Part shown: positions 6,521-25,661 of the stretch, piece by piece | How positions within the stretch are numbered: the stretch's first letter is position 1 | How the letters are laid out: each line of letters starts with the position of its first letter | Virus record (IMG/VR): IMGVR_UViG_2548876958_000018 | Length of the DNA stretch: 33,896 nt | Reading direction: 5' to 3' (one strand) | Source: a virus | Taxonomy: Duplodnaviria; Heunggongvirae; Uroviricota; Caudoviricetes | The notes under the pieces: model-generated | What the model was told of the DNA's origin: nothing | The model's input: the letters and a program-made list of their open reading frames with translations, nothing else | The model's database searches: none | Translations under genes and position numbers: made by a program

Positions 6521-7576
6521 TTAATTTTTAAATATGGATTGTATGTATTCTATAGTGCTATCTTTAGCTCTGATGTCTTTTAAAGTGTTATTTATGAAAT
6601 CTATTATTCTGTCATTACTTAATAGTGGCGATAACGCATAACATGTTGTTGTGAATGTCATGACGTCACTAAAGCTTAGTGAAACACCTTTTGTCGCAGC
6701 GTTCTCAATCGCAAGAGACTCATCAATATCTAAGTTTGTTGCTCTTGGCCCTTTAAGGAAGATAACTTTTGAAATCCCGGATGCAGATGCTTTTGAAACG
6801 GCGTGATTAACATCTTGATAATTAAATGGTTTGTCTTTCACTTCTATAGAAAGGAAAACTATATCATCATGATATACATCTATGTCCAGTATCTCTTTTG
6901 AGGAGCTACCGGCCTGATTGACGGGATGTGCTTTTATTATCCATCCTCTTTGTTCACCTAATAAATGTAACGAAATTGCGGCAGCAATCGCGCATGTTTC
7001 TCCATCACAAGGATGAGATATAATATTATAAATAATCTTATGGAAATCAAAATTAATTGAGTTCGGCGTTATAACTCTATTGGTTCGCTGTAGGGTAAAA
7101 TATAATGCAATAACAAGCATTTCATAAGCTAAGGTTTGGGTTGTTGCTGCATGTAATATATCAATTGAAAGTTGTTGTAAAACCTTATCATTTCCTCTGC
7201 GCACAGGGTTATCAGAGGAGTGGAGCATGTAACGAGCTGGTTTATTTAGAAATGGCTCATTTGATGCGCCTAACTTACCCTCTAAAAATGGGCCTTCTAC
7301 TTTGCCTACTATTACCGAATGACATAAACTCCTTGCATCATAGGCTCCGTCTACGGGGGCATTAGCTTGTAAAGCCAGAGGGTTAACTCTAGGGTCTGTT
7401 GCTTTTGCAAGTAAACCAGTAATAAGTATATATCTGTATGTAAGGTGGGTGCCTAAAATTACATTTTGAATGGAGACCCATTGATTATTTGTTTTGTAAT
7501 CAGTTAATTTTTTTGCATCGTTGATTGCATTTATAATTACATTATAGGCTTGCTCATGATTTACTAATACTTTCAT
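6521..7576 (-). CDS. putative Type II restriction endonuclease (351 aa)
   Basis: AT-rich ORF directly downstream of, and overlapping by 23 bp, the HTH controller gene; divergent from the methyltransferase; PD-(D/E)xK-like signature DIDVYHDDIVFLSIEVKDK; RBS AAGGA 5 nt before the ATG. Confidence 0.6.
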   Translation of the reverse strand: MKVLVNHEQAYNVIINAINDAKKLTDYKTNNQWVSIQNVILGTHLTYRYILITGLLAKATDPRVNPLALQANAPVDGAYDARSLCHSVIVGKVEGPFLEGKLGASNEPFLNKPARYMLHSSDNPVRRGNDKVLQQLSIDILHAATTQTLAYEMLVIALYFTLQRTNRVITPNSINFDFHKIIYNIISHPCDGETCAIAAAISLHLLGEQRGWIIKAHPVNQAGSSSKEILDIDVYHDDIVFLSIEVKDKPFNYQDVNHAVSKASASGISKVIFLKGPRATNLDIDESLAIENAATKGVSLSFSDVMTFTTTCYALSPLLSNDRIIDFINNTLKDIRAKDSTIEYIQSIFKN

Positions 7577-7868
7577 AGGTGTCCTTTAGTAAGATATCCA
7601 TTGGTAGACCTAATCGGCTTGCAACCACCTCTAATAATTCAAATAGTTCTAAAGCATCTAATCGCCTTTCAAAGCTTTCGATTTTAGATATATCTGATTG
7701 TGATAATCCTAGAAAAATGGCCAATTCTGACTGCGAAAGAGAAGCTTCTTTGCGTAGTTTGGTGAGAAGCTGGACTAGGCACCTGTATCTATGATCATGT
7801 ATAGTTGGTTGTCGTTTTGCCATGTGGTTTAGAAGGTGATTGATTGTGTGTCGATCCTTACCTATCAT
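7554..7868 (-). CDS. controller (C) protein of the R-M system, XRE-family HTH
   Basis: 104-aa ORF with helix-turn-helix segment LSQSELAIFLGLSQSDISKIE; sits in the gap between divergent R and M genes, upstream of and overlapping R; alternative start at Met16 (7823). Confidence 0.65.
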   Translation of the reverse strand: MIGKDRHTINHLLNHMAKRQPTIHDHRYRCLVQLLTKLRKEASLSQSELAIFLGLSQSDISKIESFERRLDALELFELLEVVASRLGLPMDILLKDTYESISKS

Positions 7869-7873
7869 TGGTT

Positions 7874-7892
7874 TTATTCCAAAATCGAATAA
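7874..7892. promoter_or_regulatory. candidate operator (C-box-like inverted repeat) between controller and methyltransferase starts
   Basis: TTATTC-N7-GAATAA dyad at 7874..7892, immediately upstream of the controller start (7868) and before the methyltransferase GTG (7907). Confidence 0.3.
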
Positions 7893-7906
7893 TTGGTGCT
7901 AAAGAA

Positions 7907-8998
7907 GTGAACAAAATTTCAGCGGTGAGCTTATTTACTGGGGCAGGAGGGATGGATGTCGGTTTCTCTAATGCCGGGTTCCGAACAGTTTGGGCCAATG
8001 ATATAGATAAGGATGCATGTGATACATTTAAGCTTAATCATGAATCACCTGTTTTTTGTGGTGATATTGATGAGATGCTAAGTGAATTGTCTGGGCTGAA
8101 AAATATAGGTTGTGTTTTTGGTGGGCCTCCATGCCAAGGATTTTCTGTGGCAGGGAAAATGGACGCTCATGATCCACGTAGTAAGCTGGTTATGTCATTC
8201 ATGCGGGCGGTGGATATAATTCAACCAGAATGCTTTGTTATGGAGAATGTTAAGGCTTTAGCACAGTTGTCCAAATTTGAACCAGTTAGGTGTGAACTGT
8301 TTAAGATGGCTGAAAAGTCAGGCTATCGTTCAGCCTTGCTGGTGCTGAATTCTAAAGATTTTGGCGTTCCTCAGAATAGGGAACGTATGTTTTTTATAGG
8401 GTTTCGTTCCGAAAATGATGTGAAACGAGTTGAGGCGGCGATAAAAAAATACCAATATCTTTCGCCAACAGTTGGTGAGATTATTCGGCCTTTAGGGCGA
8501 GCGGGTAATCCAAATAATTCAAGAGTCTGTAATGCAAGGATTACAAATGCTGCTAAGCCAGTATTACGGAAGTCACCTTACGCGGGAATGATGTTTAACG
8601 GGCAGGGAAGACCAATTAACCCGAATGGGTATGCTTCAACTATAGCTGCTTCTATGGGGGGGAATAGGACACCAATTATTGATGAAGAACACCTTTATGA
8701 TGGCTCAACAAGTTATGTTGAGACTTATCATAATCATCTAATGAATGGTGGTGAGCCAAAAGATATGCACGATGTACCTAGTCGTTTACGTCGACTAACG
8801 ATAGATGAGGCTCTTTTGATTCAAACATTCCCGAGTAATTATGTCTTTGTGGGGAAAAATTCGTCAATTTGGCGTCAGATAGGGAATGCTGTGCCTTGTA
8901 AATTGGCGCAGGCTGTTGCTGCAGGGGTTTTGGATGTCCTTACTGGTAAAACTATTAATGTTCAAAAGAGTCAAACAGAGTTGAGTTTGAATTCGTAA
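7907..8998 (+). CDS. DNA (cytosine-5)-methyltransferase
   Basis: Motif I LFTGAGGMDVGF, motif IV GPPCQGFS, motif VI ENV, motif VIII QNRERMFFIG. Start taken as the in-frame GTG at 7907, which leaves a 330-bp gap to the R start; the track's TTG at 7844 (RBS-like AAGGTG 5 nt upstream) is an alternative that would overlap the controller gene. Confidence 0.9.
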   Translation: MNKISAVSLFTGAGGMDVGFSNAGFRTVWANDIDKDACDTFKLNHESPVFCGDIDEMLSELSGLKNIGCVFGGPPCQGFSVAGKMDAHDPRSKLVMSFMRAVDIIQPECFVMENVKALAQLSKFEPVRCELFKMAEKSGYRSALLVLNSKDFGVPQNRERMFFIGFRSENDVKRVEAAIKKYQYLSPTVGEIIRPLGRAGNPNNSRVCNARITNAAKPVLRKSPYAGMMFNGQGRPINPNGYASTIAASMGGNRTPIIDEEHLYDGSTSYVETYHNHLMNGGEPKDMHDVPSRLRRLTIDEALLIQTFPSNYVFVGKNSSIWRQIGNAVPCKLAQAVAAGVLDVLTGKTINVQKSQTELSLNS

Positions 8999-17520: not shown

Positions 17521-17647
17521 TTTAAGTGCCGATATCCGGCAGCTTGAGAACGCGCTGGCGCGCTGTGCCAGCCAGGTAAAAATGATTAAACACTGTCAGG
17601 ACGAAAACGATGCTCAAACCCGACAGCCTGCGCAGGGCGCTGACTGA
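17357..17647 (+). CDS. lysC: outer-membrane lipoprotein spanin subunit (LysC / Rz1-like), embedded in lysB
   Basis: ATG at 17357 in the +1 frame of lysB; signal peptide with lipobox LCAGC; Pro-rich; 96 aa; extends past the lysB stop into the R start. Confidence 0.6.
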   Translation: MKTKIFAAGTALTCLMLCAGCTSAPPAPTPVIVHNACPKVSLCPMPGSDPETNGDLSADIRQLENALARCASQVKMIKHCQDENDAQTRQPAQGAD

Positions 17648-18593: not shown

Positions 18594-19379
18594 TTATGAG
18601 TGATTTTTATTTGATGCTTTGTATTCTACAACCTTCTTATTGGCGTAAAGGAATTTTGTATATGACAGGAATATAACCAGACCTGAAATGAAATAGATGA
18701 GGGATATTATTAATAATGCTTTTTTTTGGCTGTTATTATCTTTAATCTCCTGACTTAACCATTCCGAGTCCTCCTCGTTTAGCTGTAAGAGCTTATTGCA
18801 GGCGATCTCAGGAAGTGTGTCTTTTATAAATACGTTTCGTAGCCTCTTGCAATCGGCAAGGCTATAAGTTTTATTGAATTCAACTGTTTTATTGTTGAAG
18901 GATAAAAGAACTTTGTCACTATAAACATAGTACATCATATTTTTATATGGTATGCCTATGGCATCTCTTACTATAACGGATTGTTTGTTGTGTATATAAC
19001 ATGCGAAGAGAATATAAATAATGCTGGACAGAATTACAATTATTGTTTTAATTATGTGTGGTGGTTTTGTTATGTCACCCCAGAAGCGAGTAAGAAAAAA
19101 ATACGATGTTTTTAGTTTTCCATCAATCAGCCCCTGCTGTATCATTCTCACATCTTCGATGCCTGATACATTGATTCCGTTAATTATTTTAAATAGTTGA
19201 ATGTCGCGCCATTTTTTGTCGAGCATTTTTAACTTTCTGTCTGAATACTCAAAATTGAAATGATGTGCAATAAACCTCATAAGATTACTTTTACCAAAGG
19301 TAATAAATGTTAATGCTATTAATAAAAATAGATACAAAGAGATAAACCACCACGCATTAGTCACATTATCACTGAACAT
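18594..19379 (-). CDS. AT-rich moron: 261-aa membrane protein with three predicted TM helices, unknown function (P2 orf30 position)
   Basis: Antisense to the flanking tail operon; strongly AT-rich unlike neighbours; hydrophobic segments near residues 10-28, 112-130 and 221-240; no recognisable catalytic motif. Confidence 0.7.
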   Translation of the reverse strand: MFSDNVTNAWWFISLYLFLLIALTFITFGKSNLMRFIAHHFNFEYSDRKLKMLDKKWRDIQLFKIINGINVSGIEDVRMIQQGLIDGKLKTSYFFLTRFWGDITKPPHIIKTIIVILSSIIYILFACYIHNKQSVIVRDAIGIPYKNMMYYVYSDKVLLSFNNKTVEFNKTYSLADCKRLRNVFIKDTLPEIACNKLLQLNEEDSEWLSQEIKDNNSQKKALLIISLIYFISGLVIFLSYTKFLYANKKVVEYKASNKNHS

Positions 19380-21888: not shown

Positions 21889-23988
21889 ATGAGCACAAAA
21901 TTCAGAACCGTTATCACCACTGCTGGTGCAGCAAAGCTGGCAGCGGCAACCGCGCCGGGAGGGCGGAAGGTCAACATTACCACGATGGCCGTCGGGGATG
22001 GCGGTGGTAAATTGCCTGTCCCGGATGCCGGACAGACCGGGCTTATCCACGAAGTCTGGCGACATGCGCTGAACAAAATCAGCCAGGACAAACGAAACAG
22101 TAATTATATTATCGCAGAGCTGGTTATTCCGCCGGAGGTGGGCGGTTTCTGGATGCGTGAGCTTGGCCTGTACGATGATGCTGGAACGTTAATTGCCGTG
22201 GCGAACATGGCTGAAAGTTATAAGCCAGCTCTTGCCGAAGGCTCAGGGCGTTCGCAGACCTGCCGCATGGTCATCATCGTCAGCAGTGTGGCCTCAGTGG
22301 CGCTGACCATTGACACCACAACGGTGATGGCAACGCAGGATTACGTTGATGACAAAATTGCAGAACATGAACAGTCACGACGTCACCCGGACGCCTCGCT
22401 GACCGCCAAAGGTTTTACTCAGTTAAGCAGTGCGACCAACAGCACGTCTGAAACACTCGCCGCAACACCAAAAGCGGTAAAAGCAGCATATGACCTTGCT
22501 AACGGGAAATACACTGCACAGGACGCCACCACCGCGCGAAAAGGCCTTGTCCAGCTCAGTAGCGCCACCAACAGCGATTCTGAAACGCTTGCGGCAACGC
22601 CAAAGGCGGTTAAGACAGCGTATGACCTTGCTAACGGGAAATACACTGCACAGGATGCCACCACAGCGCGAAAAGGTCTTGTCCAGCTCAGTAGCGCCAC
22701 CAACAGTGATTCTGAAACGCTGGCTGCAACACCAAAAGCGGTGAAGTCTGCCTATGACAATGCTGAAAAACGTCTTCAGAAAGATCAGAACGGCGCGGAT
22801 ATTCCTGATAAAGATCGCTTCCTGAGTAACATTAATGTTTACAGCAAAGGCGAGGTGGATAAGAAAAAAGGAATGCGGCTGTACGTATTTAACGCGCCGT
22901 CTAATGCTGTTGGTGGAAAGTGGTATCCAGTTATTTTCCGGCGTTCCACTGGTAGCACTGGCGAACTGGCTTCCAGAGTGGTTATTACAACCACATCTGC
23001 CGGTGGTGATTACGCAATGAATAACTGCGAATTTAATGGAATGGTAATGCCCGGAGGTTGGACTGATCGTGGTTCATATGCAGCAGGTTATTTTTCGACA
23101 TATCAGACTAATGAGCGCGCAATCCATTCCATTGTAACAAGCCTGAAAGAAGATGATGTATGCAGCGTTTTTTACGTTGAAGGCAGGGCTTTTCCTGTGC
23201 GAGTTTTTGCCGAAGAAGGGCTAACGGTTATTGTTCCAACTCAGGATTATACCGTCGGTCAAACAACATATAAGTGGGGAGCAACTAATCCCGCGACAGA
23301 AAGCACGAACGCACAAGCCATTCTGGATTTTAACAATGGGCGAGGGTTTTATTGTTCTCACTCAATATTCGGTATTAATGCCATTTTTAGCGGAAATCTG
23401 GGGATTGGAACGGCTAATGCCCTGGGTGGAAATTCAATAGTTTTAGGAGATAACGATACCGGGTTTAAACAAAATGGTGATGGGGTGCTGGATGCTTATG
23501 CTAATGGTGTGCATGTATTCCGCTTTATAAATGGTTCAGCAAGATCATTAAAGGGTATTCAGGCTGGGGAAAGTAAGTTCTTCACACTTTCAAGTGCAAA
23601 TACCGCTGCCCGTAATGCATCATTTAACTTGTGGGGAAATTCGTCAAGACCAACTGTTGCAGAGCTTGGTGATGATTCAGGCTGGCATTTCTATAGTCAG
23701 CGAAATACAGATAACTCGGTGATATTTGCTGTAAACGGTCAGATACAACCAAGCAACTGGGATAACATTGATTCCCGATATGTGAAAGATGTTCGGCTTG
23801 GCTCACAGCAATATTATGGTGTGAACAACTGGCAAACATGGAACTTTCAGTGCCCTTCAGGTCATGTATTGTCTGGTATAAATGTTCAGGATACAGGTTC
23901 CAACTCCGCCGATAATATTGCGGGTGTTTATTACAGACCCGTTCAAAAGTATATAAATGGCACATGGTATAATGTAGCGAGCGTTTAA
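21889..23988 (+). CDS. H: tail fiber protein (699 aa), mosaic with internal tandem repeats
   Basis: Large ORF after I; N-terminal part GC-rich like the rest of the phage, C-terminal about 1.2 kb AT-rich with a Gly/Asn/Ser-rich distal domain; followed by the fiber assembly gene. Confidence 0.85.
22423..22758 (+). repeat. in-frame tandem repeat inside H: 132-bp unit, about 2.5 copies
   Basis: 44-aa unit LSSATNS(T/D)[12 protein letters not shown](A/T)[23 protein letters not shown] repeated from 22423, 22555 and 22687, with a few substitutions. Confidence 0.8.
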
Positions 23989-23989
23989 T

Positions 23990-24517
23990 ATGATGCACTT
24001 AAAGAACATAAAAGCGGGTAACACTAAAACACTGGAACAGTATGAGTTAACAAAGAAGCATGGAGTCATCTGGCTTTACACTGAAGACGGGAAAAACTGG
24101 TATGAGGAAGTGAAGAACTTTCAGTCAGACACAATAAAGATTGTTTACGACGAGAATAATATAATTGTCGGCATCACCCGAGATGCTTCAACGCTTAACC
24201 CTGAAGGTTTTAGCGTTGTCGAGGTTCCTGATATTACTGCCAACCGACGTGCTGATGACTCAGGTAAATGGATGTTTAAGGATGGTGCCGTGATTAAGCG
24301 GATTTATACGGCAGACGAACAGCAGCAACTGGCAGAATCACAAAAGGCAACTTTGCTTTCCGAAGCCGAATCCGTGATTTTGCCGCTGGAGCGCGCTGTC
24401 AGGCTGAATATGGCAACAGATGAGGAACGCAGCCGACTGGAAGCATGGGAACGCTACAGCGTTCTGGTCAGCCGTGTGGATCCTGCAAATCCTGAATGGC
24501 CGGAAATGCCGCAATAA
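23990..24517 (+). CDS. G: tail fiber assembly chaperone (175 aa)
   Basis: 175-aa ORF immediately after the fiber gene; P2 gpG position. Confidence 0.75.
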
Positions 24518-24738
24518 GTTGTATAAGCTCTGGTGTGAGATTACATATCTATGGCACAGAGTAAAGCCTAATCTGACAGGCCGCTCTGTGTCTGGAGTAG
24601 ATTTTAGTAAAGCATTATTTTATTAGTGCAAATTCTAAACAATACATTTTATGTATATGATATCCTGCGGACTTTAATGATTTGGTTTAGGCTAACCAGA
24701 TAACACTGAAGGAATATTTTTGATAATTAAGGTGCGGT

Positions 24739-25332
24739 ATGTTTACTAAGCGACGATTAAAAAATATTAACTGGGAGGCAAGTTCAGTGATTCTTGCTAT
24801 GGTTCTCTTTGCTGGAAATATATTTTATACAAATCATCGTGATGATATAAGCATGGAGGCTGAGAGAGACAGTATCAGAACAATGTTTGCATATGAAATC
24901 GCTAATAACCATCGCGCTCTCACCTTTCTTGATAAAACGAGAAATATTGGCTTTGACGAAAATTCGGAGCATTTTGTTGGCGAGCCTTTTGCCATTAATG
25001 TCAAATCATCAGGGGGACCTCGCTTACAGATTGCATTAAACCAGACTGATAAAGTGTTTAAATCATACTTCAGCGAATTAAGTAAGCTTGATAAAGAGGA
25101 TGTTACTCTTCTTATGGACTATTACCATGAGCAAAGCATCCTGCTGGAGCGTGTAAAATCTACGTTACAGAAGATGAAAAGTGGTAATGATATTAAAGTT
25201 GATATTGATGGTTACTTATTAGAAGAACACTTCATGAATGAGCTTAATCTTTCTAATATTTTGCTTAAACGCTATAGCTATTTATTATCACAGCACGCTA
25301 AAGAACATAAAACAAAAGATTTACATAATTGA
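24739..25332 (+). CDS. AT-rich moron: 197-aa protein with one N-terminal TM anchor, unknown function (P2 Z/fun position)
   Basis: Preceded by a 220-bp AT-rich spacer; N-terminal hydrophobic segment SSVILAMVLFAGNIFY, then a charged, probably helical domain; lies between G and FI. Confidence 0.7.
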   Translation: MFTKRRLKNINWEASSVILAMVLFAGNIFYTNHRDDISMEAERDSIRTMFAYEIANNHRALTFLDKTRNIGFDENSEHFVGEPFAINVKSSGGPRLQIALNQTDKVFKSYFSELSKLDKEDVTLLMDYYHEQSILLERVKSTLQKMKSGNDIKVDIDGYLLEEHFMNELNLSNILLKRYSYLLSQHAKEHKTKDLHN

Positions 25333-25539
25333 TAATCTGCTAATGGTTATTCATGGGGTAACTATGTTTTATATGTAATCCAGCTCAGATGAATTATTGA
25401 TTCTGGATAATAACCGCAGAGCGGCATATACCCTGACAGGCAAATGTCCGCTTCTTGCTCAAAGCAGACTGTCAGATTTGATAACTTTTGGGCTATGTAA
25501 ACTGTCAGTCGGAAAATGAGTGTGTACAAATCAGGACAG

Positions 25540-25566
25540 GCGGGCGAATTGCCCGCATTTTCTTTA
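25540..25566 (+). terminator. candidate intrinsic terminator after the G-FI moron
   Basis: GCGGGC (25540..25545), loop GAATT, GCCCGC (25551..25556), followed by a T-rich tract ATTTTCTTTATCTGTTGTTT. Confidence 0.4.
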
Positions 25567-25661
25567 TCTGTTGTTTCATCCACTGACCAGCCAGGTCAAA
25601 TAGCGTCTCATGCTCTGCACAACAGAAAATAGTTGCACCCATTAACCACGGAGTTAAACGG

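Follow-up and report, generated by a model that had tools for sequence, protein, structure and literature searches.

A 197-residue membrane-anchored protein of an uncharacterized family carried as cargo in the Z/fun slot of a P2-like prophage

INTRODUCTION

What is encoded by the cargo that P2-like phages carry between their tail genes, and what would it do for the prophage? That the Z/fun slot of P2 accepts cargo was recognized decades ago, and recent large screens have been centered on the other P2 hotspot, old/tin. To our knowledge, the contents of the Z/fun slot are mostly unstudied, Fun(Z) aside. The question is raised here by a Caudoviricetes record of 33,896 nucleotides (nt) (IMG/VR IMGVR_UViG_2548876958_000018; the whole stretch is called the window, and positions are those of the window), in which the slot holds one open reading frame (ORF) of 197 codons at 24739..25332 (+). 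An earlier reading of the letters of the window (the original prediction) proposed that its product is a single-gene anti-phage or exclusion factor. We find that the cassette with this gene belongs to a class that is already known, that of P2 Z-region cargo, and that the protein family is uncharacterized; a role in excluding other phages at the cell envelope is the reading we favor, tentatively, on the evidence set out below.

RESULTS AND DISCUSSION

A foreign cassette between G and FI

The upstream neighbor of the ORF is a tail fiber assembly protein (Pfam Caudo_TAP, E = 3e-35), the downstream neighbor is the tail sheath protein FI (Phage_sheath_1, E = 1e-33), and the same G-FI interval carries fun(Z) in phage P2 according to the P2 annotation and an alignment of the flanks. 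The assignment of the slot to the P2 Z/fun locus in the original prediction is upheld by these matches, as is its description as a variable cargo site, since other P2-like phages have different genes there, including one for a SMEK-domain protein, a NUDIX and phosphatase combination, orf44, and further genes. To locate the limits of the insert, the region was compared by BLASTN with relatives that have other cargo, namely P2, Wphi, vB_EcoM-12474III, P24C9, and the Z-region entries of P2-EC58 and P2-EC45. Similarity on the left side stops at 24590 in every P2-like comparison and restarts on the right side at 25440-25447, except in P2-EC45, where it restarts at ~25534. These breakpoints delimit a foreign cassette at 24591..~25446 that is 856 bp long and has a GC content of 0.34, compared to 0.45-0.56 in the flanks. 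By every tested feature, the cassette is P2 Z-region cargo, consisting of foreign low-GC DNA between conserved left and right inverted repeats.

The conserved P2 backbone downstream of G includes a left inverted repeat and hairpin region at 24518..24590 (+; GC 0.45), which lies outside the insert, corresponds to a feature that AJ512683 and AJ512679 list as "left inverted repeat," and folds at -25.4 kcal/mol (z = -3.2). An AT-rich spacer had been predicted upstream of the ORF, and its 221 bp are indeed AT-rich (GC 0.348), but the first 73 bp are this backbone segment. What belongs to the cassette is a leader of 148 bp at 24591..24738 (+; GC 0.30) that is missing from P2-like phages with other cargo. 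On the other side, a cassette-specific 3' region (25333..25446, +) accompanies the gene, and nucleotide similarity to a Pantoea island (L009) and an Enterobacter cloacae plasmid (L015) runs from the ORF to ~25470-25475. The right inverted repeat of the Z region (25447..25535, +), annotated in AJ512683, is common to the P2-like phages compared, whatever their cargo. It opens with the hairpin (G)TCCGCTT...AAGCAGAC, followed by CTGTCAGATT, which is the inverted copy of AATCTGACAG in the left flank; a repeat scan places the inverted pair at 24570-24588 and 25460-25478. Of the two hairpins, only the right one has an intact motif in the window; the 3' arm of the left one is degenerate and departs from the form completed in other cassettes, GTCCGCTC...GAGCGGAC.

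Every Z-slot cassette in the comparison lies between two hairpins with the stem GTCYGCT/AGCRGAC (24553-24592 and 25446-25478 in the window), and these hairpins are set within the larger inverted repeat formed by AATCTGACAG ... CTGTCAGATT. Left hairpin, gene, and right hairpin occur together on the E. cloacae IncFII plasmid (L015 7792..8630) and in the Pantoea AlpA island (L009 7793..8735), and no remnants of P2 G, H, FI, or FII are found near these bracketed copies. Since the bracketed unit is present without P2 structural genes, it is portable beyond P2.

The cassette resembles the other P2 Z-region cassettes (Fun(Z); P2-EC30, EC45, EC46, and EC58 in AJ512676-AJ512683; Wphi orf44) in its slot, flanks, inverted repeats, low-GC foreign composition, and possession of its own expression signals, which are candidates here. 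Besides the degenerate arm of the left hairpin, it differs from them in its product, which is unrelated to Fun(Z) and is not encoded in the AJ5126xx records within the phage collection searched. Fun(Z) prevents T5 growth and makes cells sensitive to FUdR. The shared slot is the one argument for regarding the 197-aa protein as P2 Fun(Z) or a diverged form that excludes T5 likewise, an identity that the original prediction had left undecided. Sequence comparison rules out that it is the P2 product: Fun(Z) (NP_046777) has 528 amino acids (aa), is encoded on the opposite strand, and gives a best BLASTP E value of 2.2 over 32 residues, and P2 is absent from the 13 phage records that encode the 197-aa protein. 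Even descent from Fun(Z) is extremely improbable on these grounds.

A conserved gene of a small family

The ORF listing with its translation bears out the single AT-rich ORF that had been predicted in the slot (24739..25332, +; 594 nt, 197 codons), and an AAGGTG ribosome-binding site lies at 24729-24734, 5 nt 5' of the ATG. GC content is 0.347 in the ORF and 0.32 at third codon positions, compared to 0.565 and 0.684 for FI and 54% for the flanks overall, and a sliding profile gives 0.29-0.39 over 24500-25500 and 0.52-0.62 on both sides. Pairwise Nei-Gojobori ratios of nonsynonymous to synonymous substitution (dN/dS) range from 0.08 to 0.18 in comparisons with six homologs from differing genomic contexts, wherever dS is unsaturated. 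An open frame of 594 nt is improbable by chance at 35% GC, and this, the low dN/dS, and the existence of distant homologs all indicate a genuine gene; judged from these sequence comparisons, it is real and under purifying selection. Shortened versions of 99 aa (P0060 and P0062, from the cluster of the window protein) occur on ~40 Escherichia coli contigs, so the copy is disrupted in some lineages.

A word-indexed search identified 38 relatives, of which the full-length ones are 53-98% identical, in six enterobacterial genera (Escherichia, Pantoea, Pluralibacter, Salmonella, Kosakonia, and Enterobacter). A phmmer scan of 1.84 billion cluster representatives yielded only 20 clusters at E ≤ 0.001, including relatives of ~200 aa at 23-41% identity, and the family was seen in just three species under one-genome-per-species sampling. 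The protein family is small and restricted. The gene product, annotated here as a bitopic membrane protein (RefSeq WP_001443367), has a full-length match to PHROG 3829 (E = 6.6e-135, positions 1-197/197), a family with no assigned function and the sole PHROGs match at E values up to 1. No other named family passed a sequence or profile test.

Predicted architecture and a possible role in exclusion

One membrane-spanning segment is predicted at about residues 12-31 (WEASSVILAMVLFAGNIFYT; 24772..24831, +) from hydropathy, an AlphaFold2 model, and family conservation; Kyte-Doolittle windows of 19 residues score highest when they begin at residues 10-14. The remainder of the protein (residues 32-197; 24832..25329, +) is modeled as an up-down four-helix bundle and predicted by charge rules to be periplasmic. 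Hydropathy and model thus agree with the N-terminal membrane anchor and helical domain of the original prediction. The protein has no cysteines and no lipobox, and its sequence makes cleavage by signal peptidase unlikely, because Phe occupies position -3 of the sole Ala/Gly site. AlphaFold2 performed poorly when given close homologs only (predicted local distance difference test [pLDDT] 69.6), and the addition of distant homologs produced five concordant models, the best with a pLDDT of 83.5 and a predicted template modeling score of 0.72. The modeled helices span residues 12-66, in which the membrane helix is continuous with the first helix of the bundle, 92-116, 119-148, and 151-178, with a loop of 25 residues at 67-91. 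The protein ends ~10-20 residues beyond the bundle, and neither the model nor the sequence contains a second membrane helix or a cytoplasmic output domain. Foldseek searches of PDB and BFVD returned no match at E ≤ 0.001, only generic helical bundles. As modeled, the fold is a membrane-tethered four-helix bundle without a specific relative.

The membrane helix is the best conserved part of the protein. In an alignment of 25 family members, the mean frequency of the majority residue is 0.74 in this helix versus 0.57-0.67 in the others, and W12, E13, S16, V17, A20, M21, and F24 are invariant among enterobacterial members. This pattern suggests that the helix does more than anchor the protein. 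Beyond the membrane helix, R47, Y52, N57, and L117 are invariant. N-terminal tails are basic in 24 of the 25 members (2-8 lysine or arginine [K/R] and 0-1 aspartate or glutamate), the exception being P0052, which is N-terminally truncated and has no tail; those of the distant members are 10-24 residues long with 2-8 K/R. Over the first 15 residues past the membrane helix, the net charge is negative in 19 members, zero in four, and positive in two (P0036 and P0047). Under the positive-inside rule, the basic tail and acidic post-helix stretch predict that the tail is cytoplasmic and that the bundle faces the periplasm. Exactly two cysteines follow the membrane helix in five of the six full-length distant members, 4-5 residues apart in four of them, and such pairs would fit an oxidizing compartment. 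With a cytoplasmic tail of ~11 residues, the protein would have no room for a cytoplasmic sensor, an enzyme, or action on nucleic acid.

Given this architecture, the reading that we favor, with more doubt than confidence, is that the protein is an envelope-level (superinfection) exclusion factor that interferes with genome delivery. It is suggested by a slot known for phage-exclusion cargo and by carriage on phages, satellites, and plasmids. The short cytoplasmic tail and the lack of an enzymatic domain argue for action by binding in the inner membrane or periplasm. The protein would bind a periplasmic or inner-membrane component of genome delivery, either a host channel protein or the ejection or tape-measure proteins of the incoming phage; a superinfecting phage would be halted before its DNA reaches the cytoplasm, and the prophage would benefit without death of the host cell. 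The phages targeted in this way could be a narrow set. A fuller version of the proposal, in which the protein founds an undescribed periplasm-facing antiviral family, the tethered bundle recognizes the delivery machinery or host channel, the conserved helix blocks DNA translocation, and the gene ranks among the most frequent Z-slot cargoes in E. coli and is shuttled among P2-like phages, P4-like satellites, lambdoid prophages, and plasmids as a hairpin-bracketed cassette, is on the whole unlikely to be right in all its parts.

In its predicted layout, the protein resembles known membrane-anchored exclusion proteins such as lactococcal Sie2009, HK97 gp15, T4 Sp and Imm, and P22 SieA. It is likewise small, non-enzymatic, and borne by a prophage as an accessory, and it is predicted to have an inner-membrane anchor and its bulk outside the cytoplasm, a likeness of architecture only (compare PMC10883804). 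Its non-essential accessory status also fits this class, as the gene is found in 13 phage records, whereas P2, Wphi, and most relatives lack it and have other cargo. Homology to a described exclusion protein was not found in PHROGs, Pfam, or BFVD/PDB fold searches.

Should the protein act in envelope exclusion, a new family would join a defense class that detection tools mostly miss because its members have no recognizable domains, and it would become easier to predict which phages can infect clinical and veterinary E. coli strains. Should it prove not to be antiviral, it would clearly illustrate that the presence of a gene in a hotspot is insufficient evidence of defense.

Evidence that weighs against an exclusion role

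Several points count against exclusion as the function of the protein, a role that is put forward as a hypothesis. The predicted topology comes from charge rules only, and counting K/R alone leaves the enterobacterial members ambiguous. The promoter that would express the gene is a candidate, not an established one. Comparison with PADLOC models, proposed as a check in the original prediction, gave no support: the query has no match in PADLOC-DB v2.0.0 at E values up to 10, and across the 25 family members there are four scattered single-member matches, all at E ≥ 0.0028 and none consistent. The PD-T4, PD-lambda, and PD-T7 models of PADLOC come from functional selections with T4, lambda-vir, and T7, and no model of these three series matches the protein. 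More generally, PADLOC, PHROGs, and PDB/BFVD fold searches revealed no sequence or fold tie to a known exclusion or defense protein.

The same side of the balance includes data from phage AC1 (Rousset et al.), which has a 93.9%-identical copy of the gene in the same slot. On the phage panel of that study, an AC1 lysogen of E. coli C was protected only against lambda and LF82_P8, and this protection was reproduced by a cloned TIR locus from the other hotspot (PMC9122126). We took the panel to be the eight phages of the Methods of that study (lambda, T4, P1, 186cIts, CLB_P2, LF82_P8, AL505_P2, and T7). The AC1 lysogen therefore displays no protection that needs the 197-aa gene as an explanation, which is weak negative evidence. 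No T5-like phage is in the panel, leaving room for a narrow specificity like that of Fun(Z).

Searches with other resources offered no alternative identity. Pfam returned no match for the query or any of the 25 family members, and a literature search found no mention of WP_001443367, WP_088550475, A0A376P8H3, or phrog_3829; these accessions are not among the entries in the DefensePredictor supplements. A match to NCBIfam YydG (E = 0.03, 13.8 bits against a cut-off of 300) was dismissed as noise. YhcB/ZapG (DUF1043) was rejected as a relative and its resemblance put down to chance: the weak profile match to PDB 6un9 (E = 0.021) covers the last helix only, no family member matches DUF1043, and the predicted topology is opposite, since the YhcB/ZapG anchor is N-out, C-in and the basic N-tail of the 197-aa protein predicts the reverse. 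A bundle of the up-down type that is continuous with a membrane helix is also found in the sensors of chemoreceptors and histidine kinases (Tar, Tsr, PcaY, and PilJ). This likeness is generic, with de novo designed bundles, talin, and cytochrome oxidase subunit 3 scoring equal or better, and in contrast to chemoreceptor sensors there is no 4HB_MCP_1/TarH Pfam match in the 25 members and no cytoplasmic signaling module.

Distribution and genomic company

The full cassette with both flanks was identified in 201 of 5426 complete E. coli genomes (3.7%), always in the chromosome, which amounts to about one-fifth of the 1017 genomes with any match to the region. The exact protein occurs on 329 contigs. 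With its 856 bp and single gene, the cassette is unusually cheap to test. Coupling of the cargo to tail fiber type was considered and rejected, because phages with the same allele of G can have other cargo (R18C, HQ103, and pro147), and G proteins with divergent N termini accompany this cargo elsewhere.

Homologs are also found in satellites, plasmids, and islands without tail genes. In Pantoea ananatis, Kosakonia sp. SOY2, and K. oryzendophytica, a lone gene copy sits in P4-like satellites directly after the primase gene and beside the element end; the site after the P4 primase is reported to be a minor P4 defense hotspot (PMC13586616). Other copies occur at the end of a lambdoid prophage in Salmonella, beside genes for a C5 methylase and a DUF4928 protein; in an AlpA-type island in Pantoea; beside ArdB/KlcA-type antirestriction and RadC genes in Pantoea; on an IncFII plasmid in E. 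cloacae; on small Limnobaculum contigs with resolvase and ParB genes; and, for the distant homolog P0057, in a conjugative-transfer region. In Proteus (P. mirabilis), a distant homolog occupies a variable slot beside ahpCF and once adjoins genes for putAbiC-domain and HD-domain proteins (L021 4046-6591). The distant homolog P0049 (33% identical) lies 39 bp downstream, on the same strand, of a gene for a 290-aa TIR protein that matches PADLOC PDC-S66 (E = 2e-112; L022 7090-8657), a model of PADLOC's single-gene candidate series. Another distant homolog is divergent from a gene for a protein with a Cap4 nuclease domain, with ParA on the same contig (L027 4162-6220). The cassette is a portable unit on several kinds of mobile element. 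Its carriage and neighbors, as read from these sequences, form a consistent guilt-by-association signal for defense, which falls short of proof.

The P0049-TIR pair lies next to an integrase gene, within an island of an enterobacterium, and the two genes may form a unit that is limited to this branch. A TIR effector was rejected as a general explanation: no TIR gene is present in the window or in the other contexts examined except that of P0049, and the bundle is predicted to be periplasmic.

Neighbors of this kind bear on a different antiviral mechanism, in which the protein would be a membrane effector of abortive infection, with the bundle sensing infection, the helix oligomerizing, the membrane being depolarized, and the cell dying before phage release. 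The TIR, putAbiC-domain, and Cap4-nuclease-domain proteins beside distant homologs would suit such a system, as would the conservation of the membrane helix, in which S16-x3-A20 has the small-residue spacing typical of helix-helix packing, and membrane effectors are frequent among defense systems (PMC9122126). We nevertheless consider this mechanism rather improbable. Phage products in the cytoplasm, or nucleotides made by a TIR protein, could not be sensed by the ~11 residues predicted to lie there; nearly all copies of the gene are solitary, and no partner is conserved; and the TIR neighbor, which matches a single-gene candidate model, accompanies one branch only.

A second group of neighbors may point away from phages. 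Rhs and CdiA toxin loci lie a few kilobases from gene copies in two contexts, which would fit lysogenic conversion unrelated to phage, the product being an envelope fitness protein such as an orphan immunity protein to a periplasm-acting bacteriocin or secreted toxin, or a stress or colonization factor. A membrane-anchored periplasmic domain, as predicted here, resembles some bacteriocin immunity proteins, of which colicin M immunity is an example. RefSeq entries WP_001443367 and WP_088550475 are named "hypothetical" or "lysogenic conversion protein," the AC1 lysogen shows no antiviral phenotype for which the gene has to be invoked, and P2 hotspots also hold non-defense cargo, such as cytolethal distending toxin (PMC9122126). 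The name, however, appears to be a positional label that carries no evidence of function, as the same phrase is attached to unrelated Z-region ORFs in 2003-era AJ5126xx records. No cognate toxin gene is adjacent in any of ~15 contexts, and phages, satellites, and plasmids carry the gene at sites rich in antiviral cargo. Such a conversion function is unlikely on balance.

Expression signals and the end of the transcript

In the lysogen, the protein would be made from a promoter of the cassette itself. A weak sigma-70 candidate is present in the leader, with a -35 element TTCTAA at 24633-24638, a 17-bp spacer, and a -10 element TATGAT at 24656-24661. It matches eight of 12 consensus positions and lies beneath the threshold of the promoter scan. 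The TATGAT block and a TTTTTGATAATTAAGGnG block are common to the leaders of the window and a Pantoea homolog. The sole site returned by the consensus scan (24700-24727) was rejected because its transcript would lose the ribosome-binding site, and TATGAT at 24656 is the better promoter candidate. A search for non-coding RNA in the region gave just one sub-threshold snoRNA match.

The gene lies on the strand of the late V-W-J-I-H-G operon, directly 3' of H and G, and the terminator scan found no canonical terminator between the G stop codon and the ORF. Late read-through is therefore plausible, ending at a terminator at 25540, and the protein would probably also be made in this way late in infection. 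Position and strand are likewise the basis for viewing the gene as an accessory of the late phage life cycle, with a part in tail fiber function, lysis timing, or the prevention of progeny adsorption to lysed cells, and the degeneracy of the left hairpin, completed by other cassettes, points in the same direction. This view has very little to recommend it when the gene is missing from P2 and most P2-like phages, G allele and cargo vary independently, and homologs reside in tail-less satellites, plasmids, and islands.

The intrinsic terminator, GCGGGC-GAATT-GCCCGC followed by a T-run, is located at 25540..25566 (+), and its hairpin (25540-25556) folds at -15.1 kcal/mol (z = -2.5). The original prediction had named these positions as a candidate terminator flanking the gene; the terminator scan and folding energy agree, but the element is kept in P2, Wphi, and all other P2-like phages compared and is not part of the insert. 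It belongs to the backbone, directly precedes the Ogr-activated pF promoter, and stops rightward transcripts before they reach pF. The pF late promoter region and FI leader follow at 25569..25661 (+), with an Ogr site at ~25569-25594 and a transcription start at ~25636, positions that were carried over by alignment from P2, in which the annotated activator site is 17555-17583 and transcription starts at 17626. A 45-aa ORF on the opposite strand (25505-25642, -), listed as a hypothetical protein in some P2-like records (e.g., PhiR44_1), overlaps the terminator and the pF region. The annotation of P2 has no gene at this position, and conservation of the regulatory DNA that it overlaps is probably the sole reason why the ORF is retained.

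Other features of the window

Two further cargo sites of the window prophage are occupied. Genes for a type II restriction-modification pair fill the old/tin hotspot between A and Q, at 6521-7576 (-) and 7844-8998 (+), comprising a SacI-family endonuclease (Pfam RE_SacI, E = 3e-76; PADLOC REase_II, E = 2e-251) and a C5 cytosine methyltransferase. The third site is the S-V slot, at the position of P2 orf30, where an ORF of 261 aa (18594-19379, -) runs opposite to the late genes; it has a sub-threshold Pfam match to DUF6535 only (E = 8e-4) and no PADLOC match. AC1 has an ORF of the same size in its S-V slot (L026 23136-23921). In the tail fiber gene H (22400-22750), the translation contains a segment of ~46 residues in three tandem copies.

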